NCBI GenBank assembly: GCA_963832745.1
Contig: CAWHVC010000003.1
Location: 256,001 to 320,000, forward strand
From: Candidatus Bathyarchaeota archaeon
GTDB taxonomy: Archaea > Thermoproteota > Bathyarchaeia > Bathyarchaeales > Bathycorpusculaceae
DNA: 64,000 nucleotides
Direction of reading: 5' to 3'
Part shown: one piece after another, positions 5,321 through 27,232 of the stretch
Numbering within the stretch: position 1 is the stretch's first letter
Layout: every line of letters begins with the position of its first letter
Notes under the pieces: generated by a model
What the model was told of the DNA's origin: nothing
Databases searched by the model: none
The model's input: the letters and a program-made list of their open reading frames with translations, nothing else
Translations under genes and position numbers: made by a program

Positions 5321-5358
5321 TTTCTTGCCTATAACCAATTTCAAGGTTCGAAGCAAAA

Positions 5359-5433
5359 ATGATAAATCTTCACATTAACCCAAAAAGATTTCAAAGCTAC
5401 AGCTTCGAATACTGCTTTTATTATAACTTCTAA
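5359..5433 (+). CDS. Putative Phe/Tyr-rich leader peptide (24 aa, MINLHINPKRFQSYSFEYCFYYNF)
   Basis: ATG 5359 to TAA 5433; 4 Phe + 4 Tyr in the last 14 codons; lies between the promoter and the aromatic operon. Confidence 0.8.
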   Translation: MINLHINPKRFQSYSFEYCFYYNF

Positions 5434-5437
5434 CAGT

Positions 5438-5478
5438 AGCCCAGAACTAACTAAAATTTTAAAGAAATGTTCTGGGCT
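5438..5478 (+). promoter_or_regulatory. 10-bp hairpin AGCCCAGAAC/GTTCTGGGCT, candidate attenuator element
   Basis: Perfect inverted repeat starting 5 nt after the leader stop and ending just before the GGGGGT SD of aspartokinase. Confidence 0.7.
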
Positions 5479-5496
5479 GGCAAAGGGGGTAAAACG

Positions 5497-6741
5497 GTGG
5501 AAAATATAAAATCTGGCAAAAAAATTGTGGTTAAATTTGGCGGTTCAAGCCTTGCTGATCATGAAAAGCTACTGAAAGCTGTAATGGCTGTTGTTTCGGA
5601 AGCTAAACACGGTGTCAAAATCGCTGTTGTAGTTTCAGCTATGGGTAAAACTACTGATGTACTTATGACCACGGCTAAAAATACTTCAAACGGAAAACTA
5701 GCTAAACATGAATTGGATGACATTCTTTCTATGGGTGAACGCACAAGCGTACGCATCTTCGCTACTGCATTGCGGAACAATGGTGTTGACGCCTGCTACT
5801 TTGACCCCATGGAAGACAAGTGGCCAATAATCACTGATGAATCTTTCCAGAACGCTAACCCAATCGTTAAAGAATGCATCAAAAACATCAAAACCTGCGT
5901 TTTGCCGCTGGTTGAGAAAGGAACCATACCAGTAATTGCAGGTTTCGTAGGTAAAACTAAAGAAGGCAAAATTACCACTCTTGGCAGAGGCGGAAGTGAC
6001 ACCACAGCATTTATCCTTGGAGAAGGTATAGGCGCTGACCAAATCGTTCTTGTCACTGACGCGGATGGCATTATGTCAAGCGACCCCAAAATCATTAAGG
6101 CGCCTAAGCTTTTGCCAGAAATCAACGTTAATACCCTTATAGGTTTGGCTGATTCAGGAGCCAAATTTATCCACAGCAAAGCGCTTAAGTATAAACCGAA
6201 GGACATAGATGTTAAAGTTATGAGCAACAAGCATAACGACCTAAGCCAGCCAGGCACCCTAATTAAAGATGCATTAGCGTGGGAACTTGACGCTGAAATT
6301 GCTTATCCAACACCTGTTGCAGAGATAACGGTTATCGGAGAAGGCCTCTCAAGCAACACTAACATCATTACGGAAATGTTTGAAAAAGTCAGGCAGCAAA
6401 CTACACTGCTTGGCATGTCCATGAACTCAAATTCAATAATATTCTACGTAGCTCAAGAAAACAATATCGTGGAACTTTTCAACCAAATTCACCAAATCAC
6501 TATTGACAACAAAGAAACCATTGCAATGGCAGTCAAAAAAGACTTAGCTTTCATCCAAACCAGTGGTGTCGGTCTTGAAGAAACACGCGGTATCATCGGA
6601 AAAATCAGCGAAGACCTAAGACTTGCGGGCATCAACATTTCAGGCATCTTAACTATCACTTCCAGCATTTTACTGTTTGTAGATTGGAGCGAAAAAGAAA
6701 AAGCTCTAAAGCTCATTAAGACCTCATTAAAAACACACTAG
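5497..6741 (+). CDS. lysC: Aspartate kinase
   Basis: VVKFGGSS, VVVSAMG, TTLGRGGSDTTA and C-terminal ACT domains; GTG at 5497 follows SD GGGGGT (the track ATG 5467 overlaps the hairpin). Confidence 0.92.
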   Translation: MENIKSGKKIVVKFGGSSLADHEKLLKAVMAVVSEAKHGVKIAVVVSAMGKTTDVLMTTAKNTSNGKLAKHELDDILSMGERTSVRIFATALRNNGVDACYFDPMEDKWPIITDESFQNANPIVKECIKNIKTCVLPLVEKGTIPVIAGFVGKTKEGKITTLGRGGSDTTAFILGEGIGADQIVLVTDADGIMSSDPKIIKAPKLLPEINVNTLIGLADSGAKFIHSKALKYKPKDIDVKVMSNKHNDLSQPGTLIKDALAWELDAEIAYPTPVAEITVIGEGLSSNTNIITEMFEKVRQQTTLLGMSMNSNSIIFYVAQENNIVELFNQIHQITIDNKETIAMAVKKDLAFIQTSGVGLEETRGIIGKISEDLRLAGINISGILTITSSILLFVDWSEKEKALKLIKTSLKTH

Positions 6742-6745
6742 AGAG

Positions 6746-7546
6746 ATGGGATACTTGAATCAAGGCAAAACCAGGCGAATGAAACGAATCTTCCAGCAAG
6801 ATAACCGTACAGTAATTGTCCCAATGGACCACGGCGTAACCATCGGCCCAATCCAAGGCATCACCAACATGCAGCAAACAATAAACCAACTCGTTAAAGG
6901 TGGTGTTGACGCGGTTCTTGTTCACAAAGGCATCGCCAAAACTGTCGATACAACCGGCACCGGCTTAATCGTTATGCTCAGCGGCATGTCAAACCTTAGC
7001 CCAAACATAAACAATAAAGTTCAAGTCTGCAGCGTACAGGAAGCTATACGAATCGGCGCCGACGCAGTTTCCGTTCACGTTAACGTAGGTGCGCAAGATG
7101 AAGATAAAATGCTGCATAACTTGGGCAAAGTAGCTGAAGAATGCGACAGCTTTGGCATTCCTCTTCTTGCCATGATGTACCCGCGGGGACCAAGAATCGC
7201 AAATGAGCATGCACTTGAAGTAGTAGCCCACGCAGCCCGTATAGGTGCAGAACTCGGCGCAGATGTAATCAAAACTAACTACACGGGCACAATCGAATCA
7301 TTTAAGCAGGTTACTGAAAGTTGTCCAGCCCCAGTTCTAATCGCTGGTGGACCAAAATGCAAGTCCGTAGAGGAAATCTTGCAAACGACAAGTGACTCAA
7401 TCAAAGCAGGTGCAGCTGGACTCTCAATTGGACGCAATGTGTTTCAATGCGAAAATCAAGCATTAATCGTGAAGGCGCTCTCAGCTATCGTGCATAAAGG
7501 CGCATCTGTTGAGCAAGCCCAAAAAATTCTTGGTGAAAAACTTTGA
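6746..7546 (+). CDS. 2-amino-3,7-dideoxy-D-threo-hept-6-ulosonate (ADH) synthase, DhnA-type aldolase
   Basis: IVPMDHG, AMMYPRG, ELGADVIKT, AGGPK and IGRNVFQ; adjacent to DHQ synthase II. Confidence 0.92.
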   Translation: MGYLNQGKTRRMKRIFQQDNRTVIVPMDHGVTIGPIQGITNMQQTINQLVKGGVDAVLVHKGIAKTVDTTGTGLIVMLSGMSNLSPNINNKVQVCSVQEAIRIGADAVSVHVNVGAQDEDKMLHNLGKVAEECDSFGIPLLAMMYPRGPRIANEHALEVVAHAARIGAELGADVIKTNYTGTIESFKQVTESCPAPVLIAGGPKCKSVEEILQTTSDSIKAGAAGLSIGRNVFQCENQALIVKALSAIVHKGASVEQAQKILGEKL

Positions 7547-8556
7547 AAGAGCTCTGGATAGAAACAGGTAAGATAGATGCTTTATCCAACCTCATAAAGA
7601 AGTACTGTGATGTTGTAGTTGAAGGCGACAAAGCTTCTTTTTTGGCTACAATACAAGAACAAACCGTTTTGTCCCCAACTGTTGAGTCTTTCGAGGAATT
7701 AGATGTTAAAGGCAAAGTTCTACGTATCTGCATAAGCGATAAGACAACTGAAAACTTGATTGTTAAAGCCGCAGAAAAAGGCGCAAGTTACATACTTATC
7801 AGCACCGCAAACTGGCGAGTTATTCCACTAGAGAATCTCATTGCCCGCATTAAGGGTAAAAGCAAACTTATCGCTGAAGTAACCAACGCTGAAGAGGCAA
7901 AAGTTGCACTTGAAACCTTGGAACTTGGCACCGACGGCGTGCTGCTAAAAACTTCTGACCCAGATGAGGTCTTAAAAACCGTTGTAGTTGTTAAGCCTGA
8001 AGCTTTGAAACTTGAAATGGCGGTTGCCAAAATCATTTCTACTAAGCCCATAAGCAATGGTGCACGCGTTTGTGTTGATACCTGCGATTTGATGATTCAG
8101 GGCGAGGGTATGCTGGTTGGCAGTCAAAGTGCGGGATTGTTTTTGGTGGAAGCTGAAGTTAACGAGAACCCGTATGTTGCGTCGCGTCCTTTCCGTGTTA
8201 ACGCTGGTTCCTGTTCAATGTACACATTGGGCAACCTCCAAACTACGCGGTACCTTCAAGAATTTAAGGCAGGCGACGAAGTGGTCATTGTTAATCGTGA
8301 GGGTAAAACACGCAGGGGAAATGTGGGTAGAATAAAAATTGAAATCCGCCCCTTAATCCTCGTGGAAGCGCTGGTTGAAGGTAAACTAATCAAAACTATT
8401 CTGCAGAACGCTGAAACTATCCGTGTGGTTACTCCTAAATCGTCTAAACCAGTCACCGAACTTAAAGAGGGCGACGAAGTCATAGTCCACTTAGCAGCAA
8501 AAGGGGGCAGGCACTTCGGCGTCAGCGTACCCGACGAAACGGTGATTGAAAAGTGA
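7543..8556 (+). CDS. 3-dehydroquinate synthase II (archaeal type)
   Basis: WRVIPLENLIA, RVCVDTC, RPFRVNAG, LQNAETIR and GRHFG. Confidence 0.95.
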   Translation: MKELWIETGKIDALSNLIKKYCDVVVEGDKASFLATIQEQTVLSPTVESFEELDVKGKVLRICISDKTTENLIVKAAEKGASYILISTANWRVIPLENLIARIKGKSKLIAEVTNAEEAKVALETLELGTDGVLLKTSDPDEVLKTVVVVKPEALKLEMAVAKIISTKPISNGARVCVDTCDLMIQGEGMLVGSQSAGLFLVEAEVNENPYVASRPFRVNAGSCSMYTLGNLQTTRYLQEFKAGDEVVIVNREGKTRRGNVGRIKIEIRPLILVEALVEGKLIKTILQNAETIRVVTPKSSKPVTELKEGDEVIVHLAAKGGRHFGVSVPDETVIEK

Positions 8557-9233
8557 CCCCCAAAATTTGCGTGTCCATAAAACCCAAAACCACAATTGAA
8601 GCATGTAGCCTAATCAAGAAAGCTGAAAACGCAAAAGCCGACTTCATTGAGGTCCGCTTTGACAACCTAGAGGAAACCCGCAGGTTTGAAGAAATTTCAA
8701 GCGCAACAAAAATCCCGCTTATTGCCGCAAATAAGCTGCCAAGCGAAGGCGGCAACTTTTCAGGCACCCACAATCAACGTTGGGAAACTTTGGTTTACGC
8801 TGCAAAAAGCGGTTTCCAATATGTCGATTTGGATCTAACAAACCTCAAGCTAAAAGAGAACATTATAGACTTGAAAGAGTTGGGGGTTAAAACTATTGTT
8901 TCATTCCACAGGTTTAGCGACGCTTTTACAGTTCAAGAAATGCAACGCATTTTAAATGAACAAATAAGTAGCGGGGCAGATGTATGCAAAATCATTGGTA
9001 CCGCAAAACAGGTACAAGATAACCTGACTGCACTTAATTTCGTTTCTGAAAACGCGGTTAAAACCAAGCTTGTGTGCTTCTGCATGGGTGAACAGGGCAG
9101 AATTTCGAGGCTTCTTTCGCCAGTTTTTGGGGCATTCTTCACTTTTGCATCTCTGGAAGAAGGTAGCGAGACGGCACCTGGACAAATAAGCATAAAAGAA
9201 ATGAGGACTGCCTACTCTTTATTGAGGCAGTAA
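8553..9233 (+). CDS. aroD: Type I 3-dehydroquinate dehydratase
   Basis: DFIEVRFD, EGG, IVSFH, ADVCKI, MGEQGRISR and TAPGQ. Confidence 0.93.
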   Translation: MTPKICVSIKPKTTIEACSLIKKAENAKADFIEVRFDNLEETRRFEEISSATKIPLIAANKLPSEGGNFSGTHNQRWETLVYAAKSGFQYVDLDLTNLKLKENIIDLKELGVKTIVSFHRFSDAFTVQEMQRILNEQISSGADVCKIIGTAKQVQDNLTALNFVSENAVKTKLVCFCMGEQGRISRLLSPVFGAFFTFASLEEGSETAPGQISIKEMRTAYSLLRQ

Positions 9234-9235
9234 CC

Positions 9236-10093
9236 TTGGCTATTTCCGCTAAAACACGTGTTTGCGCAGTTATCGGTGACCCAATAGAGCATTCGCTAAG
9301 TCCAACAATTCAAAATGCAGCGTTTGACGCGTTGGGGCTTGATTTTGTTTATACAGCTTTCAGGGTGAAGTCGTCTATGGTTGCAAACGCTTTAGCTGGA
9401 GTGCGGGCTCTTGGCATTATCGGTTTGAATGTTACTATGCCGCATAAAGAAGCAATTATACCGCAGTTAGATGGGATAGATGAAACAGCCCAATTCCTAA
9501 ATTCAGTAAACACCATCCACAACAAGGATGGCAAACTGTTCGGGTACAGCACCGACGGCATAGGCGCCCTTAACGCGCTTAAAGAGAACGGTTCTGACCC
9601 AAAGGGTAAACAAGTGCTTATGCTTGGTTCAGGCGGAGCCGCAAGAGCAATTGCGTACACGCTTGTCCAAGAAACAGATGAACTTGTTGTTCTTAACCGA
9701 ACAGTTTCAGAAGCCAAAGAATTAGCGGAAACATTAAAACAAAAATTTAACAAAAAAGTCATTGCAGATTCACTCTCACCAGAAGTAATAAAAGAAAAAA
9801 TCTGCGATTCGGACATTCTGATTAACGCAACTTCTGTCGGGATGAAACCTAACTTAGCCCAAAGTTTAATTGCACAAAACAGCTTAAAATCTGACTTGAC
9901 CGTAATGGACATAGTTTACAATCCAGTTGAAACAAAACTTGTTATCGAAGCCAAAGCTGCGGGTGCCAAGGTAGTAAGCGGCGTAGAAATGTTAATTTAT
10001 CAAGGTGCTGCATCTTTTGAAATCTGGACTGGAAAGCAGGCTCCGGTCCAGGTTATGAGAAAAGCCGCGTTTGAACAGTTAATTAGGATGTAA
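9236..10093 (+). CDS. aroE: Shikimate dehydrogenase
   Basis: GDPIEHSLSP, NVTMPHK, GSGGAARA, NATSVGM and DIVYNP. Confidence 0.95.
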   Translation: MAISAKTRVCAVIGDPIEHSLSPTIQNAAFDALGLDFVYTAFRVKSSMVANALAGVRALGIIGLNVTMPHKEAIIPQLDGIDETAQFLNSVNTIHNKDGKLFGYSTDGIGALNALKENGSDPKGKQVLMLGSGGAARAIAYTLVQETDELVVLNRTVSEAKELAETLKQKFNKKVIADSLSPEVIKEKICDSDILINATSVGMKPNLAQSLIAQNSLKSDLTVMDIVYNPVETKLVIEAKAAGAKVVSGVEMLIYQGAASFEIWTGKQAPVQVMRKAAFEQLIRM

Positions 10094-10099
10094 ATTGTA

Positions 10100-10972
10100 G
10101 TGAAGGGAGAAGCTTTAGCGTTATCTCATGGTGCAGCAACAATCGTTAACGCCATAGCCACTGGTAAAGGGGCAGCATTCGGCGTTGACTTATACACTAA
10201 AGCACAAGTAAAACTAACCAGTGAACCGCAGGTTTTTGAATCCGAAATTACTTCAGACCAAAAAGAGAATCCAGTTTTGATACAAAAAACCGTTCAAGCA
10301 GTCCTCAAATGCTTCGGCAAAGAGAAAGAGTTTGGCGCAAAAGTCAAAACATGGAGCAACATCCCAATTGCTAGAGGACTTAAAAGCAGTAGCACAGCAG
10401 CCAACGCAGTAGCCCTCGCAACCCTTGGCGCTCTTGGCGAGACGCTGGAGGATTTGGAAACTGTAAAGCTGGGTGTACAGGCAGCTTTTGAGGCAAAGGT
10501 TACGGTTACAGGCGCTTTTGATGATGCTTGTGCCTCATTCTTTGGAGGCTTGGTAGTTACAGATAACCTGAACTGCAAACTTGTCAAGCAAGAAACCTTG
10601 ACTGAGGACTATGTAGTTCTGTTTCAGGTGCCCCCCAAAAAAGCCTACACCGTAAACACTGACATCAGCAAGCTTGCAGCGCTTAAGCCGCAGATTGAAG
10701 CAGCATACGACATGACACTGAAAGGTCTCCATTGGGAAGCTTTAACACTTAACGGATTAAGCTACTCGGCTGCTCTTGGTTTTAACTGCAAAGTCGCAGT
10801 TGACGCTTTAGCTGCGGGTGCACGGGCAGCAGGCTTGTGCGGTAAAGGACCAACAATCACTGCCGTCGTCTCCAAAGACCGCATTGAGCAAGTTAGGGCT
10901 GCTTGGCAGGATTATGAAGGGGAAATTTTACAAGCAAGTTTAAACCATGACAAAGCTAAGGTACTCGTATAA
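10100..10972 (+). CDS. aroK: Archaeal (GHMP-family) shikimate kinase
   Basis: TIVNAIATGKGAA, IPIARGLKSSS and VTGAFDDA. Confidence 0.93.
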   Translation: MKGEALALSHGAATIVNAIATGKGAAFGVDLYTKAQVKLTSEPQVFESEITSDQKENPVLIQKTVQAVLKCFGKEKEFGAKVKTWSNIPIARGLKSSSTAANAVALATLGALGETLEDLETVKLGVQAAFEAKVTVTGAFDDACASFFGGLVVTDNLNCKLVKQETLTEDYVVLFQVPPKKAYTVNTDISKLAALKPQIEAAYDMTLKGLHWEALTLNGLSYSAALGFNCKVAVDALAAGARAAGLCGKGPTITAVVSKDRIEQVRAAWQDYEGEILQASLNHDKAKVLV

Positions 10973-12276
10973 TGGTCACCGTAACCGTTAAACCCACAAG
11001 CAAACTTCAAGGCACCCTTTGCGCGCCTTCGTCAAAATCTTACACACAACGTATGCTTATAGCAGCGGCGCTTTCACAAGGTACAGGAAAAGTTTCAAAC
11101 CCGCTTTTGTCAGAAGACACTGAAGCAACTTTTAGGGCTATAACAGCTTTAGGTGCCCAAGTACAAAAAGCAGCAGGTTGCTGGAATGTTCAAGGAGCAG
11201 AAGAGCTCAAAGCAGCCAGCGACTTAATTGATGTAGGCGAATCAGGTGCAACCTTGCGGTTTATGATTCCCATCGCGGCACTGGCGTCTGGGCGTTCAGC
11301 GTTTCTGTTGTCGAGTTCTTTGGAAAAAAGGCCAATTGAGCCGCTTCTTTCCAGCCTAAAACAGCTTGGAGTTAACGCTTATCATAAACAGATTGGGGAC
11401 TTTCCAGTAATCGTGGTGGAAGGGAGCGGCTTAGCTGGAGGAAGAACCAGTATCTCAGGTGATGTCAGTAGCCAATTTATCAGCGGCTTAATGTTTGCTT
11501 GCCCAATGGCTAAGGCTGACACGGAGATAACTGTTACAACACCATTAGAATCCAAAGATTACGTAAAAATGACCCAAGAAGTGCTTGCCCAACATCACGT
11601 TGAAGTGCAAATCAGCGACGATTTCCGCCACATCCACATTCCGGGGAGGCAGATTTTCAAGCAGGTTAACTGCAAAGTACCCGGCGACTTTTCCTCAGCG
11701 GCTTTTCTTTTGGCAGCAGCAGCCATCACCAAGTCAAATGTAAAAATAAACAACCTGACCTACGAGACAGCGCAGGGTGACCGTGCAATTTTGGGTGTTC
11801 TTAAGCATATGGGTGTTGAAGGCAAAGTCTGCGAGGACAGCGTAGAAATTCAAGGCACTGGCGGCTTGCTTAAGGCGGTTGATATTGACGCAAAGAATAT
11901 TCCTGATCTAGTACCGATTTGCACGGTTTTGGCTTGCTATTCTGATGGCGAGTCGAGGATTTTTAATGCTCAGCGTTTGCGGTTTAAGGAGTCTGACCGT
12001 TTAGCCACTGTCCACGAGGAGTTAACAAGAATGGGAGCTGAAATCAGCATGGACGAATCGAGCTTAACTATCAAGGGACCTTGCAAACTACACGGCGCAA
12101 CCATCAACCCGCACAATGACCACCGAATCGCCATGTCCACTGCCGTAGCCGCGCTTCGAGCCACTGACGAAACCATAATTGAAAACGCTGAGTGCGTCAG
12201 AAAGTCTTATCCAGCATTCTACACTGATTTAGAAGCATTAGGAGCGGAAATCGTTGGCGGGAAACTCGTTAGGTAA
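10972..12276 (+). CDS. aroA: EPSP synthase
   Basis: PSSKSYTQR, GESGATLRF, SSQFISGL, RFKESDR and DHRIAM. Confidence 0.96.
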   Translation: MVTVTVKPTSKLQGTLCAPSSKSYTQRMLIAAALSQGTGKVSNPLLSEDTEATFRAITALGAQVQKAAGCWNVQGAEELKAASDLIDVGESGATLRFMIPIAALASGRSAFLLSSSLEKRPIEPLLSSLKQLGVNAYHKQIGDFPVIVVEGSGLAGGRTSISGDVSSQFISGLMFACPMAKADTEITVTTPLESKDYVKMTQEVLAQHHVEVQISDDFRHIHIPGRQIFKQVNCKVPGDFSSAAFLLAAAAITKSNVKINNLTYETAQGDRAILGVLKHMGVEGKVCEDSVEIQGTGGLLKAVDIDAKNIPDLVPICTVLACYSDGESRIFNAQRLRFKESDRLATVHEELTRMGAEISMDESSLTIKGPCKLHGATINPHNDHRIAMSTAVAALRATDETIIENAECVRKSYPAFYTDLEALGAEIVGGKLVR

Positions 12277-13357: not shown

Positions 13358-13359
13358 AA

Positions 13360-13620
13360 ATGGAAGATTTGCAGACATTGCGTAAACGTGTCGACGAAAT
13401 TGACGAAAAAATTCTAAAAGCATTAAGTGAACGTGTTGAAGTCTGCAGGCAGATTGGCGAAGTTAAAAAGCAGCAGGGTCTGCCGGTGCGTGACCAATCC
13501 AGAGAAACCAAAGTTTACAGTAAAGTCAAAGAGAAAGCGGCCAATTTTCAGTTGGAACCCTCCCAAATTGAGGCGGTTTACCGCGAAATAGTTAATATGT
13601 GCAGTGCAGTTCAAAAATAG
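13360..13620 (+). CDS. Chorismate mutase (AroQ type)
   Basis: LRKRVDEIDEKILKALSER..IGEVK..PVRDQSRE. Confidence 0.93.
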   Translation: MEDLQTLRKRVDEIDEKILKALSERVEVCRQIGEVKKQQGLPVRDQSRETKVYSKVKEKAANFQLEPSQIEAVYREIVNMCSAVQK

Positions 13621-13651
13621 AAAGTAACTCTTAACGGAGAGTCATCTCACC

Positions 13652-14731: not shown

Positions 14732-14733
14732 AA

Positions 14734-15609: not shown

Positions 15610-15710
15610 ACGTCATTGCCCTTTTTTCGGTTTAGAAACCGATTTAAAGCTAATCGGGCTCTATTTCTATAGTCAATTTTTTTGACAGTAACAGTTTTGG
15701 GCTGGAATTT

Positions 15711-16724: not shown

Positions 16725-16844
16725 ACACAACATTAAAAGGAAAAGCAGTTAACCATTAAGTTAGCTCTGCACAGGTTTTTTCAGGCACAAACAAGACGAT
16801 TTTATCAAAAAATCTATTACCTCCCAAACCAACCATTAAGAAAA

Positions 16845-17270: not shown

Positions 17271-17276
17271 CGGTTT

Positions 17277-18089
17277 TTAGATGATTCTTGGGTAAGACCC
17301 TAGAATCTTAACGAAAGTAGCATATTTTTCCAGCGCTTGCAGGGCTTCTGTGCAGCGTTTTTCTGTTCTGTGTCCTTCGAAGTCGAGGTAAAAATTGTAT
17401 TGCCAAGCGGTGGTTTTGGTTGGTCGGGATTCGATGCGTGTTAGGTTAATGTTTCTGGATGCGAATTCGCCTAGGGCATGATATAGGGTTCCGGGCGCGT
17501 GTTTGGCGCTGAAGATTATGCTGGTTTTGTCGTCTCCTGTTGGAGCTGCGTCTTCTTTTGAAAGTACAAGGAAGCGGGTGTAGTTGGATGGGTTGTCGGC
17601 GATGTCTCGGGCTACGATTTTCATGTTGTAGAGGTCTGCGGCTTTTTCGCTGGCGATTGCTGCTGCGTTAAAGAGAGCTTTTTCTTTTATCATTTTCACG
17701 CTGCCAGCGGTGTCGTAAGCTGGAATGATTTCCCATTTGTGCTTTTCAAGGTAACTGCGGCATTGACCAAGCGCTTGAGGATGGGAATAAACTGATTCGA
17801 TGTCTTCAAACTTTGTTTGAGGATTAGCGATTAAGACATGGGCGAGTTTGACGGCGACTTCTCCGCACACTTTAAGGTCATACGCTAAGAAAAGGTCATA
17901 GTTTTGGTTGACGCTACCCTCGATTGAGTTTTCAATCGGCACAACACCATTGGGAACTGCGCCGGTGTTTACGGATTCAAAGACGTCTCGGAAATCCTTA
18001 CAGGGCACAGGCTCTATTTTGCTGCCGAAAAATTTGTAGACAGCCATTTCGCTGTAAGCGCCAGTTTCTCCCTGATAGGTTACTTTCAT
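17277..18089 (-). CDS. pheA: Prephenate dehydratase
   Basis: YQGETGAYSE, PIENSIEGSV, SHPQALGQC, NYTRF and LTRIESRP (ACT domain). Confidence 0.96.
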   Translation of the reverse strand: MKVTYQGETGAYSEMAVYKFFGSKIEPVPCKDFRDVFESVNTGAVPNGVVPIENSIEGSVNQNYDLFLAYDLKVCGEVAVKLAHVLIANPQTKFEDIESVYSHPQALGQCRSYLEKHKWEIIPAYDTAGSVKMIKEKALFNAAAIASEKAADLYNMKIVARDIADNPSNYTRFLVLSKEDAAPTGDDKTSIIFSAKHAPGTLYHALGEFASRNINLTRIESRPTKTTAWQYNFYLDFEGHRTEKRCTEALQALEKYATFVKILGSYPRII

Positions 18090-19615: not shown

Positions 19616-19619
19616 AAGC

Positions 19620-20645
19620 TTAAGCTTTTAGCGCTGCAGCAATGGCTTGTGCCATCTGCATTGTAGAGGCTTTGCCGCCTAAATCTGGAACGGTAACGCC
19701 GTTAACCAATGTTTGGACTGTAGCGTTTTCTATTGCCGCAGCTGCCTTTAAGCATTTAGAATCATTAAACCGTTCACCCAGCCAATCCAGCATCATCTTT
19801 GCGGACAGTATCATGGATATGGGGTTTGCGATATGCTTACCAGCAATGTCAGGAGCTGAACCATGAATAGGTTCAAACAATGCAAAGTTATCGCCGATGT
19901 TTGCGCCTGGAGCCATGCCCAGACCGCCGATTAACTGCGCTGCCTCGTCACTTAGGATGTCACCGAACATGTTACACGTGCATAGCACGTCGAAGTCTTG
20001 GGGAGTTCGGATAAGGTGCATTGTCGCTGCGTCAACATACATTTCATTGTATTTGATATCTGGATATTTTTCTGCAGTTTCTTGACAGACTTTTTTGAAT
20101 AAGCCGTCGGTTACACGCATGACGTTTGCTTTATGAATTGCTGTTACTTTCTTTTTAGGGCGCAGTCTTGCGGTTTCAAACGCGCGTTTGGCGATGCGTT
20201 CACAGTTTTGCCTTGAAATTACTCGTAAGCACACGGTTACGTCGTTGCCGATTGTGTATTCTAAGCCTTTGTAGACGTCTTCAGTGTTTTCGCGTACGAA
20301 AATCATGTCTATGTCTGGGCGGGCAACTGGCACGTTTGGAAACGCCTTTAATGGGCGCACGTTAGCGTACAAGTCAAACAGCAAGCGTAATCGGACTATA
20401 ACGTCTGCTGCGGTTTCGCCTACTGGACCTTTCAGGCAAGCGTGTGATTCACGAATAACTTTTAGGCTATCCTCTGGCAGGGCGGCACCACGTTTTTTGA
20501 GCACTGCATCGCCTGCTTCAGCTTTGACTAAGTTGAGGTTTACGCCAAAGTTTTCTTGCACTACATCTATTATTTTCAAGGTTGCTTCAGTTAACTCGGG
20601 TCCGATGCCATCGCCGGGCATTAAGGCGATTTTGTATTCGGTCAT
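19620..20645 (-). CDS. leuB: 3-isopropylmalate dehydrogenase
   Basis: PGDGIGPE, RENTED, NMFGDILSD and FEPIHGSAPDIAG. Confidence 0.9.
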   Translation of the reverse strand: MTEYKIALMPGDGIGPELTEATLKIIDVVQENFGVNLNLVKAEAGDAVLKKRGAALPEDSLKVIRESHACLKGPVGETAADVIVRLRLLFDLYANVRPLKAFPNVPVARPDIDMIFVRENTEDVYKGLEYTIGNDVTVCLRVISRQNCERIAKRAFETARLRPKKKVTAIHKANVMRVTDGLFKKVCQETAEKYPDIKYNEMYVDAATMHLIRTPQDFDVLCTCNMFGDILSDEAAQLIGGLGMAPGANIGDNFALFEPIHGSAPDIAGKHIANPISMILSAKMMLDWLGERFNDSKCLKAAAAIENATVQTLVNGVTVPDLGGKASTMQMAQAIAAALKA

Positions 20646-21145
20646 TTCTTGTTCATCCTTTTACGTAAGTTCTCAATTAATCCGCCGTCAGTCAATATTT
20701 CCATGATGAACGGTGGCAAATTAGTGCCCTGCAAACTCTTTTTAGTTGACAGGTTTTCTATTTTGCCTGTTGTCAAATCGACGGAAACCTCATCGCCAGT
20801 TTTTACGGTTTCAGAGATGCCCTTGCATTCAATGACTGGCAAACCAATGTTTATGGCGTTACGGTAGAAGATGCGTGCAAAGGTTTCAGCGATGACACAT
20901 TTTACACCTGAATACTTCAAGGCTAAAGGAGCTTGTTCTCTGCTTGAGCCGCAGCCAAAGTTTTTGCCGCCAATCAGTATGACGCCGCCTTTTGCTTTGT
21001 TAACAAATTCGGTGTCTAAACTTTCCAAGGCGTGTTTGCCTAACTCGTAAGGGTCAACTAGTACCAAGTATTTTCCAGGTAAGATAACGTCGGTGTCAAT
21101 GTTGTTTCCGAATTTTATTGCTGGAGCTTTAATTTTTGAATCCAT
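20642..21145 (-). CDS. leuD: 3-isopropylmalate dehydratase small subunit
   Basis: NIDTDVILP, NFGCGSSREQA and FARIFYRNAINIG. Confidence 0.93.
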   Translation of the reverse strand: MDSKIKAPAIKFGNNIDTDVILPGKYLVLVDPYELGKHALESLDTEFVNKAKGGVILIGGKNFGCGSSREQAPLALKYSGVKCVIAETFARIFYRNAINIGLPVIECKGISETVKTGDEVSVDLTTGKIENLSTKKSLQGTNLPPFIMEILTDGGLIENLRKRMNKK

Positions 21146-22413
21146 TACTGTTTTGCCTCCACTGTTGCTGGGTTGGTGATTTTTCCTGTTAACGCTGAAG
21201 CCGCGACCACTGCTGGTGAAGCTAAGTAAACGTTGGCTTGAGTGCTGCCCATTCTGCCGATGAAGTTGCGGTTGCTGGTGCTAACGCATGTTTCGCCTGC
21301 TGCTAGTAAACCGATGTGTCCACCTAAGCATGGACCACAGGCGGAGCCGCAAACGATTGCGCCTGCTTCAGTAAAGATTTCTGTTAAACCTTCAGCTAAT
21401 GCTTGCTTGTAAACTTCCTGTGAAGCCGGAATAACCAAGGCGCGAACGCCGTCTTTGACTTTTTTGCCCTTCATTACTTGAGCGGCTAAACGTAAGTCTT
21501 CTAGTCTACCATTAGTGCATGAACCAATGAATGCTTGGTCAACTACTACATCGCCAACCTCAGAGATTGGCTTAACATTGTCGACACTTGATGGGCACGC
21601 GATTTGAGGCTCCATTTTTGAAACATCAAAATCCATTGTGCATTCATATTGGGCGTCTTTGTCACTTTTCAGTGTTGCAAAGTCTGGCAAGTTTTTGACT
21701 CGGTTTTGTAGGAACTCTTTGGTTGTTTGGTCAGGTTCGACAATTCCGTTTTTGGCACCCATTTCTACTGCCATGTTACATACAGTCATTCTTCCTGCGA
21801 TGCTCATGGCTTTTATGGTTGGACCAGTGAATTCTGCGCTCTTGTAAATTGCGCCATCAACACCTAACTTGCCTATTATGTTTAGGACTAGGTCTTTTGG
21901 TGTGACGTATTTGGGGAATGTTCCGTTAACTTCGATTTTGATTGCTGAGGGTACTTTGAACCAGATTTTTCCGGTTGTCATTACTGCGGCTGCTTCTGTT
22001 GAGCCGATGCCAGTCGCGAAAGCGCCGAATGCGCCATACGTACATGTGTGTGAGTCTGCGCCGACTATTACTGAGCCAGGCACTACATGACCTTGTTCAG
22101 GCATGACTTGGTGGCAGATACCGCCCCGTCCTACGTCATAGATACGTAGTTTTTGTTCTTTAGCAAATTGACGCATTGTTTTATGAAGTTCAGCTGCTTT
22201 AACAGATTCAGCAGGAATCTGGTGGTCTAGAATGACTACTACTTTTTCGTTGTTCCAAACTTTTTCTGCGCCAATTTTTTTAAACGACTCTACAGCTAAA
22301 GGTCCAGTTAAATCGTGAATCATCAAGACGTCAACGTTTGCGTCCACAATTTCTCCTGGGGCGACAGATTTTTTGCCTGATGCTTTAGCTAAGATTTTTT
22401 CTGTAATATTCAT
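21145..22413 (-). CDS. leuC: 3-isopropylmalate dehydratase large subunit
   Basis: GADSHTCTYG, IGSCTNGR, CGPCLG and STSNRNF. Confidence 0.93.
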   Translation of the reverse strand: MNITEKILAKASGKKSVAPGEIVDANVDVLMIHDLTGPLAVESFKKIGAEKVWNNEKVVVILDHQIPAESVKAAELHKTMRQFAKEQKLRIYDVGRGGICHQVMPEQGHVVPGSVIVGADSHTCTYGAFGAFATGIGSTEAAAVMTTGKIWFKVPSAIKIEVNGTFPKYVTPKDLVLNIIGKLGVDGAIYKSAEFTGPTIKAMSIAGRMTVCNMAVEMGAKNGIVEPDQTTKEFLQNRVKNLPDFATLKSDKDAQYECTMDFDVSKMEPQIACPSSVDNVKPISEVGDVVVDQAFIGSCTNGRLEDLRLAAQVMKGKKVKDGVRALVIPASQEVYKQALAEGLTEIFTEAGAIVCGSACGPCLGGHIGLLAAGETCVSTSNRNFIGRMGSTQANVYLASPAVVAASALTGKITNPATVEAKQ

Positions 22414-22535
22414 GTTTTTTCTTCTCTTAATATTCTATTTTCCACTAAGCAAATGCGTCTTAAGATTAATCCTCTAAGAGACGTCACTAAAATTTTAAAA
22501 AGGGAAAATTAAGCCTTTCCATTCAGTAAACGCTT

Positions 22536-23048
22536 TTACTCGTCGATTCTGATGGATTTAGCGCCTCGAGCTAATGCGGTTATGCCTGTTCTTGCAAGTT
22601 CAAGGACTCCGAAGGTTTTCATCAAGTTTAGAAAGGCATCGATTTTGTCGGGTCCACCAGTAATCTCTATTGTTAAGCTGTCAGTTGAAACATCGATAAT
22701 TCTGCCTCTGAAGACATTAACGAAGTTGATTACGTCAGAGCGTTCCTTGGAATCCATGATTTTGACTTTAATCAGCGCTAGTTCGCGCATGACAAAGTTG
22801 CCTTGTTCGAGTTCCTCAACTTTTAACACATCGATTTGTTTAGCGACCTGTTTGGTTACCTGTTCAAGGGTTTTTTCGTCCTCGTTGACTGTTATGGTCA
22901 TGCGGGCAATGTCTTTTTGCTGTGTTGCACCTACAGTTATGCTTTCAATGTTGAAGTTTCGTCGTCTAAACAAGTTGGCGATGATATGAAGTACACCGGG
23001 CTTGTTTTCGACTAAGACAGATATGACTTTTGTTTTTCCTGCTTCCAT
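22536..23048 (-). CDS. ilvN: Acetolactate synthase small (regulatory) subunit
   Basis: SVLVENKPGVL..LFRRRNFNIESI, RELALIKV and ELARTG. Confidence 0.95.
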   Translation of the reverse strand: MEAGKTKVISVLVENKPGVLHIIANLFRRRNFNIESITVGATQQKDIARMTITVNEDEKTLEQVTKQVAKQIDVLKVEELEQGNFVMRELALIKVKIMDSKERSDVINFVNVFRGRIIDVSTDSLTIEITGGPDKIDAFLNLMKTFGVLELARTGITALARGAKSIRIDE

Positions 23049-24760
23049 TAGTAGTCACCTCTCTGTTGTGGTAATCCACAGCCTGGAGGCACAAATGGAA
23101 CCACATCGGTTTCTGAGCCTATAGGCACATCGATTACCGTTGTAACTTTACTTGACATGGCTGTTTTAACGGCGTTGCGGAACTCGTCAATTGAAGCTGC
23201 ACGGATGCCTTGTGCCCCGTATGCTTCAGCCAACTTGACAAAATCCGTTGTCTTGCCCAAGTTAACAGCGTTGTAGCGTCGGTTATAGAGTGTTCTTTGC
23301 CATTGAGCAACCATACCTAACACGCTATTGTTTAACACTATAACGATTACGGGAATGTCTTCCGTGACGCTGCAGGCTAATTCTTGCTCAGACATGATAA
23401 AGCTGCCATCACCAGCAATGTCGACGACCATGCGGTCGGAACAAGCAACTTTTGCTCCGATAGCTGCAGGGAAACCAAAGCCCATTGTTCCAAGTCCACC
23501 TGAACTGATGAAAGTGCGTGGCTGCAACGTTTGCATGTATAGGGCTGACCACATTTGGTTTTGGCCAACTTCTGTTGTTACTATGCCGCTTTCAGGCAAC
23601 AGTTTACGCAGTTCAGACAGCAAAGCTTTTGGCAGCAAGTCACGCGGCAACTCTTTCATTAAGGGGCTTAACTGTTCCTTGGCTTCCTTGACGCGGTTAG
23701 TCCAGGCTTTGCCTTCGCCTTTCTTTAGCTTCTTAGATGTAGCATTCAGTAGCATTTTCATTGCAGCTTTAGCGTCAGCAACAATAGCTAAGTCAACCTC
23801 AATGTTCTTGTTAATTTCTGCTGGGTCAACATCAATCTGAATTTTTTTAGCGTCCGCTGCAAAAGAGTCCAAGTTGGCGGTTGCACGGTCAGAGAATCTT
23901 GTTCCAATTGCCAGCAAAACGTCGGCTTCACCGATTAACCTGTTAGCGGCTGGGTTGCCATGCATGCCTATGCTTCCTAAAGATAACGGGTGATTCTCTG
24001 GAAATGCGCCTTTACCCATGAAGGTTGTTGCAACAGGCGCCATTAGCAGGTCGGACATTTGCACTATTTCGTCAGATGCGCCTGCCCAGATGACTCCGCC
24101 TCCAACTAGCAAGATTGGGCGTTCTGCTTTTGCTAAGAGTTCGGCGGCTTCGCTGATTTTGGTTGGGTCTGGCGGTTGGGGTAGCCTGTATCCGCGAACG
24201 TTGGGTTTGTTTGTGAATTCAACCTCGGAGATGCCGGCTTGCACGTTTTTGGGCAAGTCAATTAGGACGGGTCCTGGCCTGCCGGTGGTTGCAATGTGGA
24301 AGGCGTTGGTGACCATTTGGGGAATTTCGGAGACGGTGCGTGGTTGGTAATTGTATTTGGTGATGGCTGTGGTGATGCCTAAGATGTCTGCTTCTTGGAA
24401 TGCGTCTCTGCCAATCATGTAGCTTGAGTTGGCGCTGAATGTTGGGATTTGGCCTGTGAGGGCGATGACGGGGCTGGAATCCATGTAAGCGTTTGCGATG
24501 CCTGTTACCAGGTTAGTGGCGCCTGGACCACTGGTTGCCATACATACGCCTGCGCGTCCGCTGGCTCTTGCGTAACCTTCTGCTTCGTGTGCAGCGCATT
24601 GCTCGTGTCGTGCCAGTATGTGTCGGATTTTTTTGTTGCCGCAGAGCGCATCGTATACTGGAAGTATGGCGCCTCCTAAGATTCCAAAGATGGTGTCAAC
24701 ATTTTGACGTTCAAGGGATTCTAAAAGTGCTTGTGCACCAGACATTTTTGGCATGTTCAA
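23048..24760 (-). CDS. ilvB: Acetolactate synthase large subunit
   Basis: RHEQCAAH, TSGPGATN, GRPGPVLID and GDGSF...NN TPP motif. Confidence 0.96.
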   Translation of the reverse strand: MNMPKMSGAQALLESLERQNVDTIFGILGGAILPVYDALCGNKKIRHILARHEQCAAHEAEGYARASGRAGVCMATSGPGATNLVTGIANAYMDSSPVIALTGQIPTFSANSSYMIGRDAFQEADILGITTAITKYNYQPRTVSEIPQMVTNAFHIATTGRPGPVLIDLPKNVQAGISEVEFTNKPNVRGYRLPQPPDPTKISEAAELLAKAERPILLVGGGVIWAGASDEIVQMSDLLMAPVATTFMGKGAFPENHPLSLGSIGMHGNPAANRLIGEADVLLAIGTRFSDRATANLDSFAADAKKIQIDVDPAEINKNIEVDLAIVADAKAAMKMLLNATSKKLKKGEGKAWTNRVKEAKEQLSPLMKELPRDLLPKALLSELRKLLPESGIVTTEVGQNQMWSALYMQTLQPRTFISSGGLGTMGFGFPAAIGAKVACSDRMVVDIAGDGSFIMSEQELACSVTEDIPVIVIVLNNSVLGMVAQWQRTLYNRRYNAVNLGKTTDFVKLAEAYGAQGIRAASIDEFRNAVKTAMSSKVTTVIDVPIGSETDVVPFVPPGCGLPQQRGDY

Positions 24761-24856
24761 TTCTGTCTCCTTTGTTTTGAATTAGCGTTTAGACTGTTGT
24801 CTATGAAAAAATTGTTTGAGAACCGTGTTGCTTGTTTAGAGGTTAACCTAGGAATG

Positions 24857-24907
24857 TTAGAGAATAAGTACCCGTCGATCCCAGCTATTGAGGTGACAAT
24901 CCCTCAT
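24857..24907 (-). CDS. Putative branched-chain amino-acid leader peptide (16 aa, MRDCHLNSWDRRVLIL)
   Basis: ATG 24907 to TAA 24857 with GAGG upstream; last four codons GTA CTT ATT CTC (V-L-I-L); 96 nt upstream of ilvB. Confidence 0.75.
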   Translation of the reverse strand: MRDCHLNSWDRRVLIL

Positions 24908-25051
24908 GTTCTTGCCTCTTTAAAGTTCACGTTAAAATAAAAATACGCAATTGTTCAAATAAAAACCTATCGGTACAGAGGCGTTTTTACAGTAAATTGT
25001 GAATAAACATCATACAAAGCATACAGCCATCTAAGGTTTTTAGGCATGTTT

Positions 25052-25513
25052 TTAGAATGTGCGGTTTCTGAATTCCCGCCTCAGCTTCTCTGAGTCACTT
25101 TCCTCTTCAGCAGCGGGGACTTCTGGTGGGGCGGGTGCCCATTTAATTTGAACTGGCGGTGGCGGCGGTGACGTTTTTTTGGCTGAGAAGTCTTCTGTTT
25201 GGCTTGGCGGGTTTCTGCTTGGCTGGTCTTCTTGGGGTTGTGGCGGCGTTATTTGGTTTTTTGATGTGCCAATGGTGTTTTGGAGTAGTTTGGGTGAAAC
25301 GTAAAGTATTAGCCAAATTATTGAGCCGATGATGAATGTTAAACCTACATAGTAAACAAGTATAACCCATGCTGAGTCATACCCGGAAAAGAGAACATTT
25401 GAAGCTTCAATTATCCAAGCCACAATAATTAGGGCGAAAGCAACAATTATGCATTTAAACCAAGCGTAAAGGTCAAACTGTTTTTTGGCTTTATCAAATG
25501 ACGCTTTAAAGAT
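25052..25513 (-). CDS. Hypothetical two-TM protein with Pro-rich tail; start uncertain (GTG 25423 or non-canonical ATC 25513)
   Basis: Frame is open upstream of the track start and completes the first TM helix; strong GGAGG sits 5 nt before ATC. Confidence 0.6.
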   Translation of the reverse strand: MFKASFDKAKKQFDLYAWFKCIIVAFALIIVAWIIEASNVLFSGYDSAWVILVYYVGLTFIIGSIIWLILYVSPKLLQNTIGTSKNQITPPQPQEDQPSRNPPSQTEDFSAKKTSPPPPPVQIKWAPAPPEVPAAEEESDSEKLRREFRNRTF

Positions 25514-25650
25514 GTCTCCCTCCCCCCTAACAATAGGTATATGGTTGATTAATTTAAAAAACCTAGTGCTTAAAATAGTTAAAAATTTGCAGTTGAACTA
25601 AGAAAACCGTGTTTTTTGTGAAATTCAGGTTTAAGGAAGAATGTGGGGGG

Positions 25651-27184
25651 TTAGGGCTTTTTTGCGCCGTTGCCGTTTCGGTAATCTGTAATTAGCACGT
25701 TCATGCAGCTTAAGACTGCTTCCATGCTGGCTTTGACGATGTCTTCGCGGACTCCCATGGCGGTAACGGTTCGGTTGCCTTTACGCATGTGAACTACGAC
25801 TTCGACCATTGCGTCAGTTCCGCCGGTGATAGCTTTAACGTTGTATTGTTCCAGCGTTATGGGTTCTTTTTCTTTTATGGCGTTCTTAGCCGCGTTTATA
25901 GCTGCGTCAACTGGGCCTACGCCGACTGCTGTTCCCCAAACGTCTTTGCCGTTAACGCATAAGCGAACGGATGCGGTTGCGGTTACTTTGTCGCCGCCCA
26001 CGAAAGTCATTTCTTCCAGCTTAATCGGTTTAACCCCGCCTAAGCCCATGACGTTTTCTGCTATGGCTAAGACGTCGGCGTCCATGACGGTTTTGCCTTT
26101 GTCGCCGAGTTCTTTGATGCGTTGGAAGATTTCTTTGAATTGGTCGTCTGTGGGTTTTAGTCCCATGCTGTCAAGGTCTGCTTTGATTGCGTGTGAACCG
26201 CTGTGTTTGCCGGGTGCGATGCGGCGTGTACAGCCAACGAGTTCGGGAGCGATGGGTTCGTAGGTTAAGGGGTTTGCAAGCATGCCCTGTGTGTGGATGC
26301 CTGATTCGTGTTTGAACGCGTTTTCGCCAACAATTGCCTTGTTGGGCTGGGTGTGTACACCTGTTAAGCGGGCAACGAGTTGGGATGTGCTGTAGAGGAG
26401 TTCAGTTTTGATGCGTAACTCCTGCTGGTAAAGGGTGCGAAGGGTGATTACGATTTCTTCTATGGCGGCGTTTCCTGCACGTTCGCCTAGGCCGTTTATG
26501 GTTCCGTGGGCTTCCTGCGCGCCTGCTCCAAGGGCGGCGATGGTGTTTGCTACTGCCATGCCGAAGTCGTTGTGGCAATGCACGCCAACAGGAACCTTGA
26601 GTGTTTCTGTGAGTTTGGTGAAGAACTCGAAAGAGCGGTCAGGTGTTAAGATGCCTACTGTGTCGCATGGCGTGACTCGGTCTGCTCCGCAAGCTTCGGC
26701 TGCTTGGAAAACTTGGGTCAGGTAGTCAAAGTCTGAGCGTGTTGCGTCTTCGGCGAGCAGGTCAACTTTTAAGCCGTGTGCTTTGGCGTAGCTGACACAG
26801 TCCTCTGTGATTTTGACAACTTGGTCACGGGTCTTGCGCAGTTTACACTCGATATGCAAGTCTGACGTGGGTATTATCATGCACATTGTTTGTGCGCCAC
26901 TTTTGATGACGGCGTCTATGTCGCCTATTGTACCTCTGCCTGCGCTTGCCACTTCTGCTCTTAGGCCCTGCTTGGCAATCAAGCTTACAGCTTCAAGTTC
27001 GCCTTCAGAAACCGCGGCAAACCCAGCCTCAATCACATCCACGCCCAACTCGTCAAGACGCTGAGCTATGCGCAACTTGTTTTCTGGTACAAGAGATACT
27101 CCGGGTGTTTGTTCACCATCACGAAGGGTGGTGTCTAAAAAGTTTATACGCTTAGGGAAGCGGTTGAATAAAGCAATACCCCAT
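25651..27184 (-). CDS. cimA: (R)-citramalate synthase (LeuA paralog); 5' end lacks an in-frame canonical start
   Basis: Frame extends upstream of the track start through [14 protein letters not shown]; [22 protein letters not shown] is CimA-like; ATG 27184 is out of frame by one base. Confidence 0.8.
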
Positions 27185-27232
27185 TTAAAGTCACTCTATG
27201 GTTCACCGTCAAGCACAGATATAAAAATTATG
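27167..27232. repeat. Direct repeat copy 1 (cimA promoter and start region)
   Basis: AATAAAGCAATACCCCATTTAAAGTCACTCTATGGTTCA...GATATAAAAATTATG, repeated at 27997-28063. Confidence 0.9.

Follow-up and report, generated by a model that had tools for sequence, protein, structure and literature searches.

Leader reading frames before amino-acid biosynthetic operons of Bathyarchaeia as candidate charged-tRNA sensors that may act by +1 ribosomal frameshifting

Bacterial leader-peptide attenuators of the trpL, pheL, hisL, and ilvL type place a short open reading frame (ORF) with end-product codons before a biosynthetic operon, and sense charged tRNA through the ribosome that translates it. To our knowledge, the coupling of amino-acid supply to biosynthetic gene expression is poorly understood in archaea beyond a few DNA-binding regulators. 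Here we describe short leader ORFs of this general kind in a Candidatus Bathyarchaeota archaeon (genome of 3.02 Mb, 42% GC), beginning with one 64,000-nucleotide (nt) stretch, G000:C3:256001-320000, which we call the window. The locus appears to hold two kinds of amino-acid-sensing leader, both kept across Bathyarchaeia—a type A leader before the aro operon, and type B leaders before the ilvB operon and before a gene for a LeuA/CimA-family synthase ('cimA'). Type B leaders also precede hisG and trpE elsewhere in the genome. The ilv, his, trp, cimA, and aro leaders are very probably genuine, amino-acid-specific regulatory leaders.

Changes of reading frame within short ORFs provide the other close parallels, and these are set out in the pertinent passages of a 2016 review (PMC5009743). 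In release factor 2 (RF2; prfB), a short zero-frame ORF is combined with a product encoded in +1; shifting takes place at CUU_U or, rarely, UUU_U, and an internal Shine-Dalgarno (SD) sequence reads GG_GGG or GG_AGG. In the ermC leader, a frame change induced by telithromycin lets ribosomes read into the spacer and permits initiation at ermC. Hungry-codon +1 shifts are promoted by an A-site codon awaiting a scarce aminoacyl-tRNA, as at CUU_AGG_C of Ty1 or in starved E. coli; the same passages state that 'no examples are known' of such frameshifting giving trans-frame proteins with a starvation-specific function, and they judge frameshifting in pheL to be incidental. For Archaea, the relevant passage of a second source (PMC8211752) gives, as of 2021, only one reported programmed -1 frameshift, that of fucA1 in Saccharolobus solfataricus. 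Our search of the literature found no paper on archaeal leader-peptide (ribosome-mediated) attenuation, and none in which trpE, cimA, ilv, or his is controlled by frameshifting.

The type B module consists of an SD sequence at the right distance, a start codon, the stretch RGG-NAU-YGY-NNN, and then one end-product codon. This fixed sixth codon specifies Leu before ilvB, His before hisG, Trp before trpE, and Ile before the cimA-like gene; that is, it belongs to the operon's own pathway in all four operon types. Each ilv, his, trp, or cimA module carries one cognate codon, and a run of cognate codons is found only in aro. The residues encoded by RGG-NAU-YGY vary (R/G, D/N/Y, R/C), and since the residues vary while the nucleotides stay, the constraint falls on the RNA. 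Either base allowed at an R position could still pair with U, and either base at a Y position with G, of this genome's 16S rRNA 3' end (GGATCACCTCCT); as a matter of sequence complementarity only, RGG..AUY is complementary to CCUCC..GAU of that 3' end if one rRNA base bulges.

At trpE and cimA, the enzyme itself lies in the leader's +1 frame. The trpE leader, M-(R/G)-x-x-(V/I/L/F)-W, stands at 30 of 32 family loci and, in eight further families of the class, at 15 of 16 loci; among the exceptions, one of the two family loci is cut by a contig end, and the single locus of family f24 (L348) is without a leader. All 20 loci that match the pattern have trpE in the +1 frame of the leader, and the same holds for 10 variants by reading of their sequences. 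Where the leader begins ATGAGG, a TGA overlapping the ATG closes the trpE frame, and at 18 of 30 loci no ATG, GTG, or TTG stands between the leader and the conserved YLLES motif. In one relative (G013), the open frame matches the TrpE-arch profile from residue 36 on, ahead of its first canonical start at residue 53. The trp shift site would be (C/A/G)UU_UGG.

The cimA leader, M-G-(Y/N)-(C/R)-F-I, is present at 28 of 30 family loci, with ATG and TTT in all 28 and an Ile codon that is ATT in 10 and ATC in 18. Its zero frame ends after 6-10 codons, and the enzyme frame is the leader's +1 frame at 28/28 loci; at 12 of these the enzyme frame has no ATG, GTG, or TTG from 30 nt before the leader to the conserved motif. 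In the window, the match to family profiles begins at residue 13-18 of the open frame, and the conserved motif precedes TTG 27075 (residue 41), the first canonical start in that frame. The RF2-type arrangement—a product in the +1 frame without its own start—is found at both trpE and cimA, with non-conserved in-frame starts in a minority of loci. As a separate observation, the genome's own trpE (G000:C2:196161-196923, outside the window) has its Pfam chorismate-binding match split over two frames near the C-terminus and is intact in relatives; frameshift, assembly error, and broken gene are all candidates for this split.

At ilv and his, the first gene has its own start, and it is the openness of a shifted leader frame that is conserved. 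The ilv leader ORF is present at all 23 genus loci, where its first ~40 nt are almost invariant, wobble positions included; the core (A/G)TG-AGG-GAT-CGY-NNN-CTC recurs at 26 of 27 further family loci and at 5 of 7 loci from other families of the order. Across these 54 loci the start is ATG (36) or GTG (18), AGG and GAT never vary, and the sixth codon specifies Leu (51) or Val (3). In many genera the peptide reads M-R-D-R-H-L, N-S, W-D-R-R-V, P, T-D-R-F-I and stop—three x-D-R-x-X units in a common frame, whose last codons specify Leu, Val, and Ile. In other families within the order the peptide is V-R-D-N-R-V, R-G-N-R-F-L (Val, then Leu), and short forms keep the Leu unit alone, for example MRDRFLQV and stop. 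The window's own sensing codons would be Leu at 24892-24890 (unit 1) and Val at 24871-24869 (unit 2). A sequence-only reading of the window, which preceded this work, had taken V-L-I-L at the end of the peptide as the sensing tail and had ilv act like aro through a run of cognate codons; relatives end instead in VQLF, VHFY, VPRN, VQIS, VPTDRFI, and others, and one cognate codon per module takes the place of the run.

Entered at codon 6, the ilv +1 frame has a median open length of 44.5 codons, and the first stop in it typically meets the ilvB start in contexts such as TGAaATG, TAAaATG, or ATGA; in the window it lies 2 nt ahead of the conserved ilvB ATG (24754-24752). The zero and +2 frames stop ~100-130 nt upstream of the ilvB start. 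The two exceptions are L103, with a stop at +47, and L123, with an in-frame fusion to ilvB. In L123 (G076:C9) the +1 frame runs on into ilvB (...SGAKALVEALERQNV), a fused layout like that of trpE and cimA. At yet another locus, L116 (G060:C1), ilvB is without an ilv leader and is preceded by a cimA-type leader, MGYRFIEPLSS and stop, which is followed only by the first part of a cimA-like frame (...IFDTILKDGEQ).

The hisG leader reads (A/T/G)TG-AGG-RAT-YGN-RTT-CAY, or M-R-D-(C/R)-(V/I)-H, at 28 of 30 family loci; its start is ATG (15), TTG (12), or GTG (1) and never a non-start codon, and codon 6 is CAT (20) or CAC (8). A second copy of GATTGCGTTCAY follows 19 nt after the first, in the +1 frame, at 27 of 28 loci, so a +1 shift at the first His codon would bring the second His codon into frame. 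After two +1 shifts the frame is open for 50-57 codons, and it stops at +10 of the hisG ATG in 20 loci and within -21..+16 in 27/28. Sequence is not conserved in the extension peptides of ilv and his; openness alone is. As a side observation, most his leaders examined (L287-L314) carry GCAATC(C) ~15-20 nt past the second module copy, which could pair with either GATTGC copy; the element is missing from the window's own clade.

For comparison, of 3300 upstream frames in this genome, 189 (5.7%) combine an open stretch of 36 or more codons with an end no more than 16 nt from a called start. Against that background, the ilv +1 frame has its first stop within -16..+16 nt of the ilvB start at 52/54 loci and the doubly shifted his frame reaches hisG at 27/28, counts that come from related genomes and are not independent trials, although they span more than 20 genera with highly diverged spacers. 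This is the ermC-type arrangement, an alternative leader frame that is open over the spacer to the downstream start.

The leader frames—trpE and cimA in +1, ilv and his open to the first gene—point to +1 frameshifting over termination, and we consider hungry-codon +1 ribosomal frameshifting a fairly probable mechanism for ilv, his, trp, and cimA. When a cognate aminoacyl-tRNA is scarce, the A site would stand empty at the cognate codon, which is presumably slow to decode under starvation; pairing of RGG..AUY with the 16S rRNA 3' end may hold the ribosome there, and the waiting ribosome would shift +1. At trpE and cimA the shifted frame encodes the enzyme, which would be made only when its own product is short. 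At ilv, one shift would suffice, at the Leu or the Val unit or, in some relatives, at the Ile unit (OR logic), after which the ribosome would read ~45 codons over the 5' untranslated region and terminate at the ilvB start. At his, two successive shifts at the two His codons would be needed (AND logic), ending at the hisG start. In these two operons the arrival of the ribosome at the start codon would turn on the first gene by translational coupling or reinitiation, by unmasking of the ribosome-binding site, or by protection of the transcript. With the amino acid plentiful, the ribosome would stay in frame and terminate after 6-25 codons. The wider proposal, for which we see an even balance, is that a single modular, SD-assisted device of this kind controls at least four pathways (Trp, Ile, Leu/Val, and His) and possibly Phe/Tyr, with TrpE and CimA as split-frame first committed enzymes, OR logic at ilv, and AND logic at his. 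Transcriptional slippage was judged an unlikely source of the +1 shift; the sites have T3 runs only.

Set beside the described systems, the leaders would work like RF2 at trpE and cimA and like ermC under telithromycin at ilv and his, with the sensed quantity being that of bacterial leader peptides. To the extent that the review describes RF2, the likeness would cover the short zero-frame ORF with a functional product in +1 (trpE, cimA), the NUU_U shift site (here (C/A/G)UU_U of trp), an A-site codon that is presumably slow and would report the pathway's own product through its rate of decoding, and a candidate internal SD-like stretch (GG_GGG or GG_AGG there, AUG_GGG or AUG_AGG here). The differences are that the codon sensed here is a sense codon read by an aminoacyl-tRNA, whereas RF2 has a stop codon read by a release factor; that the host is archaeal; that the shift would fall at codon 5/6 rather than 25/26; and that SD spacing and P-site re-pairing are not the same. 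Moreover, a shifted ilv or his ribosome would make no functional protein and would only travel to the start of the next gene. For that geometry ermC, as outlined in the review, is the closest parallel; however, its trigger is a ribosome-bound drug rather than a hungry codon, its host is a bacterium, and it is a resistance gene rather than a biosynthetic operon. Unlike known hungry-codon shifts, the frameshift here would be a designed regulatory switch of four pathways. The fucA1 case is likewise archaeal programmed frameshifting but a -1 event on a slippery heptamer, not tied to amino-acid sensing. Type B leaders depart from bacterial attenuators in their single cognate codon per module, in having no terminator/antiterminator with a U-run that we could find, in their archaeal host, and in a proposed output that depends on frameshifting. 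Because a terminator/antiterminator structure was sought and not found, we do not file the system as a classical attenuator.

The type A leader of aro, with its F/Y run and stems, is the one most like bacterial leader-peptide attenuation. We fetched 30 ADH-synthase loci of relatives, of which 23 have an adjacent aspartate kinase plus its upstream region; all 23 genus loci show an upstream ORF (uORF) ending SF[DE]Y.FYYY.F, ~45-70 nt ahead of the kinase start, with a variable N-terminal half (in sequence and length) and a conserved C-terminal tail. A family-wide kinase search returned 30 loci at 57-100% kinase identity, and an F/Y-rich uORF is in the same place at 30/30; the most divergent tails are FKYYYYF, FFKYYYY, and FKCYYYRY. 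At L055-L060, which are ADH-synthase loci of other families within the order, no aspartate kinase lies next to the gene and no F/Y leader immediately precedes it. The pattern 'SF.Y.FYY...GCCCRG' matched 104 stretches in species-representative genomes, and among the 80 listed nearly all are labelled Bathyarchaeota or Bathyarchaeia. A few contigs among these 80 are labelled Methanocella sp., Sulfotelmatobacter, Nanoarchaeia, Acidimicrobium/Acidimicrobiales, Nitrososphaerota, or Thermoproteota; they are probably mis-binned or broadly labelled Bathyarchaeia contigs.

The aro elements keep one order: promoter with B recognition element (BRE) and TATA box; GGTTCGARGC at about the predicted mRNA 5' end; ATG and the variable stretch; AGCTTCGR; F/Y run and stop; hairpin 2; SD and kinase start. 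AGCTTCGR pairs with GGTTCGARGC, and for this stem 1 RNAalifold predicts 5 pairs, with one-sided, G-U compatible changes. Hairpin 2, between the leader stop and the ribosome-binding site of the kinase, has 9 predicted pairs that are unbroken in the 23 genus sequences, with 5 one-sided changes, all G-U compatible; at family level compensatory GCG/CGT variants occur (L080, L082), and L095, L096, and L099 have a different hairpin in its place. RNAalifold found only single stems at aro and ilv, and no alternative terminator/antiterminator pair at either. The T-run of aro sits inside the loop of hairpin 2 and is T4 or less in several genomes; since it is degenerate in the window's own clade, an oligo-U terminator is not a conserved aro feature. 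Alternative leader frames reach the aspartate-kinase start at 18/23 (f+1) and 15/23 (f+2) genus loci, and at 10/29 and 8/29 family loci, respectively. Beginning at the F/Y run, the genus loci (L031-L053) often keep both alternative frames open, above a rough chance expectation. Anti-SD-like DNA before the aro leader was set aside as it sits upstream of the predicted transcription start.

Several observations weigh against frameshifting. Re-pairing of the P-site tRNA in +1 is good only for trp (CUU to UUU), where NUU_UGG fits the CUU_U rule; cimA UUU_AUY, his GUU_CAY, and ilv CAC_CUC allow partial re-pairing only, and ilv unit 1 re-pairs poorly (CAC to ACC). The spacing from RGG to the P site is 5-6 nt, longer than RF2's usual short spacing. 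No single alternative aro frame is consistently open at family level, and gene starts in relatives were placed by extrapolated tblastn alignments. The remaining points are also what one would expect of unusual but ordinary initiation, in which trpE and cimA would start at AUU, AUC, or AUA or at lineage-specific GTG or TTG, the long ilv and his frames would be independent uORFs with non-canonical starts, and the short AUG ORFs would merely compete. The +1 frame of the NAU-Y stretch reads AUY or AUA, a possible near-cognate start, at nt 8-10 of many modules; in the cimA frame of 16/28 loci, a GTG or TTG that is not conserved stands 5-29 nt before the leader ATG; 12/30 trpE loci have some canonical, non-conserved in-frame start (GTG, TTG, or ATG) before YLLES; and families f7 and f14 have an ATG in the trpE frame at leader nt 11-13. 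In those genomes with in-frame starts, ordinary initiation may therefore apply. As a general account we find it quite improbable. The codon at the near-cognate position is GCU, ACU, or GUU in several trpE loci, the upstream SD is 16-18 nt off, and the internal GAGG abuts the candidate start without a spacer. The overlapping TGA of ATGAGG leaders and the 18 trpE loci with no later canonical start also speak against it, as do the 39 of 54 ilv loci whose +1 frame is free of ATG, GTG, and TTG over its first 25 codons; the pathway match of the fixed-position codon would be left unexplained.

The model of the sequence-only reading was attenuation by stalling and refolding without recoding, in which a pause at the cognate codon(s) selects between RNA structures or governs the access of a termination factor (oligo-U, FttA/aCPSF1). 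For the system as a whole we regard this as unlikely, though it may well apply to aro, where the F/Y run, the pair of conserved stems, the A/T-rich loop (which in most genomes holds a T-run), and the placement of hairpin 2 right past the stop all suit it; around hairpin 2, stalling and refolding is at least as likely for aro as a change of frame. At his, the two GATTGCGTTCAY copies and the downstream GCAATC(C) could form alternative hairpins in many genomes. The model leaves unexplained, however, the position of trpE and cimA in the leader's +1 frame, their lack of a conserved start, and the regularity with which the ilv +1 and his +2 frames stay open to the first gene's start in comparison with background. 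At ilv, RNAalifold gave 15 pairs, no compensatory change, and no terminator/antiterminator pair, and the degenerate T-run in the window's clade counts against termination at aro. Far less probable still is that the conserved ~12-50 nt are an untranslated cis-element, either an RNA of riboswitch type or an operator bound by one general amino-acid regulator at the ilv, his, trp, and cimA promoters. Conservation is indeed at the nucleotide level—AGG and GAT are invariant in the 54 ilv loci, wobble positions included, and R/C and D/N/Y exchanges are tolerated—and weak GAGG..CCUC stems are predicted. Yet the start position varies among ATG, GTG, and TTG only, with an SD at the right distance; the sensing codon varies synonymously (CAT/CAC, ATT/ATC, CTC/CTT) and matches the pathway in four operon types; and the frame-openness results count against such an element. 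A DNA operator was rejected because start and sensing codons behave as codons. A riboswitch or T-box was likewise dropped: the predicted stems show no compensatory change or covariation, and Rfam, run over the whole window at its gathering threshold, matched one tRNA only, with chance-level matches only at E up to 10 in both leader regions.

Within one genome, the leaders do not stand out. We scored 2677 intergenic uORFs for local enrichment of any residue; the F/Y enrichment of the aro leader has p ~1.3e-4 and is tied at about rank 36-39, and the genes behind the better-scoring uORFs that were annotated, which are rich in W, T, H, N, or Y, are unrelated (Ca-ATPase, RPA, SMC-like, GAPDH, glmS). 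Similarly, the ILV content of ilv zero-frame peptides averages 0.236 over the 54 loci, vs a background of 0.25. Such statistics fail to pick out the leaders, and because single-genome enrichment is not above chance, it is comparison with relatives that carries the case for them. Searching the genome with nhmmer profiles of the two leader regions, ilv and aro, turned up no further copies. A search of the genome for the intergenic short-ORF pattern returned trp, his, ilv, cimA, and a duplicate cimA leader, plus three chance-looking others; within the window, the shared type B module is found at ilv, cimA, and the duplicate only. Other genomic matches to the module, before MinD-like, Sso10a-like, TrmO, ProRS, HAD hydrolase, and dehydrogenase genes, were judged to be chance, being without the frame geometry or the nucleotide motif.

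The observation in the sequence-only reading is partly confirmed by these results, and its interpretation partly supported. The short ORFs lie where it placed them (Table 1), its operon assignments of the aro and ilv-leu loci hold, and the F/Y match of the aro leader, with 8 of the last 14 residues F or Y, recurs at every genus and family locus. Its claim of lineage-wide, translation-dependent amino-acid sensing at several biosynthetic operons is supported and extends to hisG and trpE and to at least eight families of the class; it had proposed a look at the his and trp operons, and product-matched leaders were indeed found there (28/30 and 30/32 family loci). It had also seen that cimA has a short 5' ORF out of frame with the gene, and rated this as weak; the cimA leader is one of the strongest members of the system. 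The argument that two product-matched leaders exceed chance within this genome alone fails on the statistics above. A shared H-[IL]-N..[KR]R peptide motif falls away, as the aro leader's N-terminal half varies freely from one relative to the next, and an output by U-tract and aCPSF1 termination finds no support in the degenerate T-run after the aro leader.

Coordinates of the elements are collected in Table 1. The three promoters are putative assignments, that of aro from the archaeal consensus. The longest ORF of the aspartate kinase would start at ATG 5467, and this start was rejected; it sits within the 3' arm of hairpin 2, and the alignment puts the start at GTG 5497, behind an SD, where relatives have ATG.

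Table 1. Elements of the aro, ilv, and cimA loci in the window (positions in window numbering).
Feature	Position	Strand	Details
Putative aro promoter, BRE/TATA CCGAAACGCTTATATTTT	5306..5323	+	Near-invariant in 22/23 genus loci, recognisable family-wide
aro stem 1, 5' arm GGTTCGAAGC	5345..5354	+	About the predicted mRNA 5' end; pairs with 5401-5409; family-conserved
aro leader ORF MINLHINPKRFQSYSFEYCFYYNF and stop	5359..5433	+	F/Y codons at 5389-5430; variable N-terminus, tail conserved as SF[DGE]Y.FYYY.F
aro stem 1, 3' arm AGCTTCGAA	5401..5409	+	Codons S-F-E; genus and family alignments
aro hairpin 2: GCCCAGAAC, loop, GTTCTGGGC	5439..5477	+	Begins 6 nt past leader stop
Aspartate kinase, first aro-operon gene	5497..6741	+	GTG 5497; SD AAGGGGG 5483-5489
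ilvB	23048..24754	-	Then ilvN, leuC, leuD, leuB, leuA, pheA down to 17277; starts aligned among relatives
ilv +1 frame extension	24757..24891	-	44 stop-free codons, ends TGA 24759-24757
ilv leader zero frame MRDCHLNSWDRRVLIL and stop	24857..24907	-	Unit 1 ATG-AGG-GAT-TGT-CAC-CTC; unit 2 TGG-GAT-CGA-CGG-GTA
ilv leader SD AGAGG	24915..24919	-	SD-like sequence 5-16 nt before start in 51/54 loci
Putative ilv promoter, TATA GGTTTTTATTTG	24955..24966	-	CTTTTTATTT invariant or nearly so in 23 genus loci
LeuA/CimA-family synthase ('cimA'), leader's +1 frame	25651..27168	-	First canonical in-frame start TTG 27075
cimA leader zero frame	27152..27184	-	SD GAGTGA 27196-27191; P-site TTT 27172-27170; Ile codon ATT 27169-27167
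Putative cimA promoter, TATA AATTTTTATATC	27218..27229	-	TTTTATAT box ~45-55 nt before leader ATG in family loci
Duplicate cimA promoter and leader MGYCFILHFSFLVDWVF and stop	27997..28066	-	No cimA behind

The plus-strand aro operon runs aspartate kinase, ADH synthase, DHQ synthase II (dehydroquinate synthase II), aroD, aroE, aroK, aroA, and aroC, with an aminotransferase and tyrA downstream. On the minus strand, the operon order is ilvB, ilvN, leuC, leuD, leuB, leuA, and pheA, and the second LeuA/CimA-family synthase, 'cimA', lies further upstream. The last gene of the ilvBN-leuCDBA operon, pheA (17277-18089), encodes prephenate dehydratase; with pheA in this terminal place, an enzyme of the Phe branch would fall under a Leu/Val-sensing leader.

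The promoter and leader of cimA are duplicated over ~70 nt, with copies at 27167-27235 and 27997-28066; the direct repeats are of 57 nt (82% identity) and 23 nt (96%), and are 830-831 nt apart. The two copies flank two plus-strand ORFs, 27305-27553 and 27535-27987, the first of which resembles an AbrB/SpoVT-type antitoxin by eye. This ORF pair may be an inserted toxin-antitoxin module.

For work on these genomes, there are practical consequences—trpE and cimA-like genes are likely mis-annotated as N-terminally truncated or broken, and the module, at ~18 nt plus SD, could be tried in reporter constructs and as a synthetic-biology part. If the frameshift mechanism is true, it would be the first +1 programmed frameshift in Archaea, and the first natural case of aminoacyl-tRNA-limited frameshifting used as a metabolic sensor. 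A large uncultured class would then read its charged-tRNA levels through programmed +1 frameshifting, with a sensor that is general, modular, and open to logical combination.

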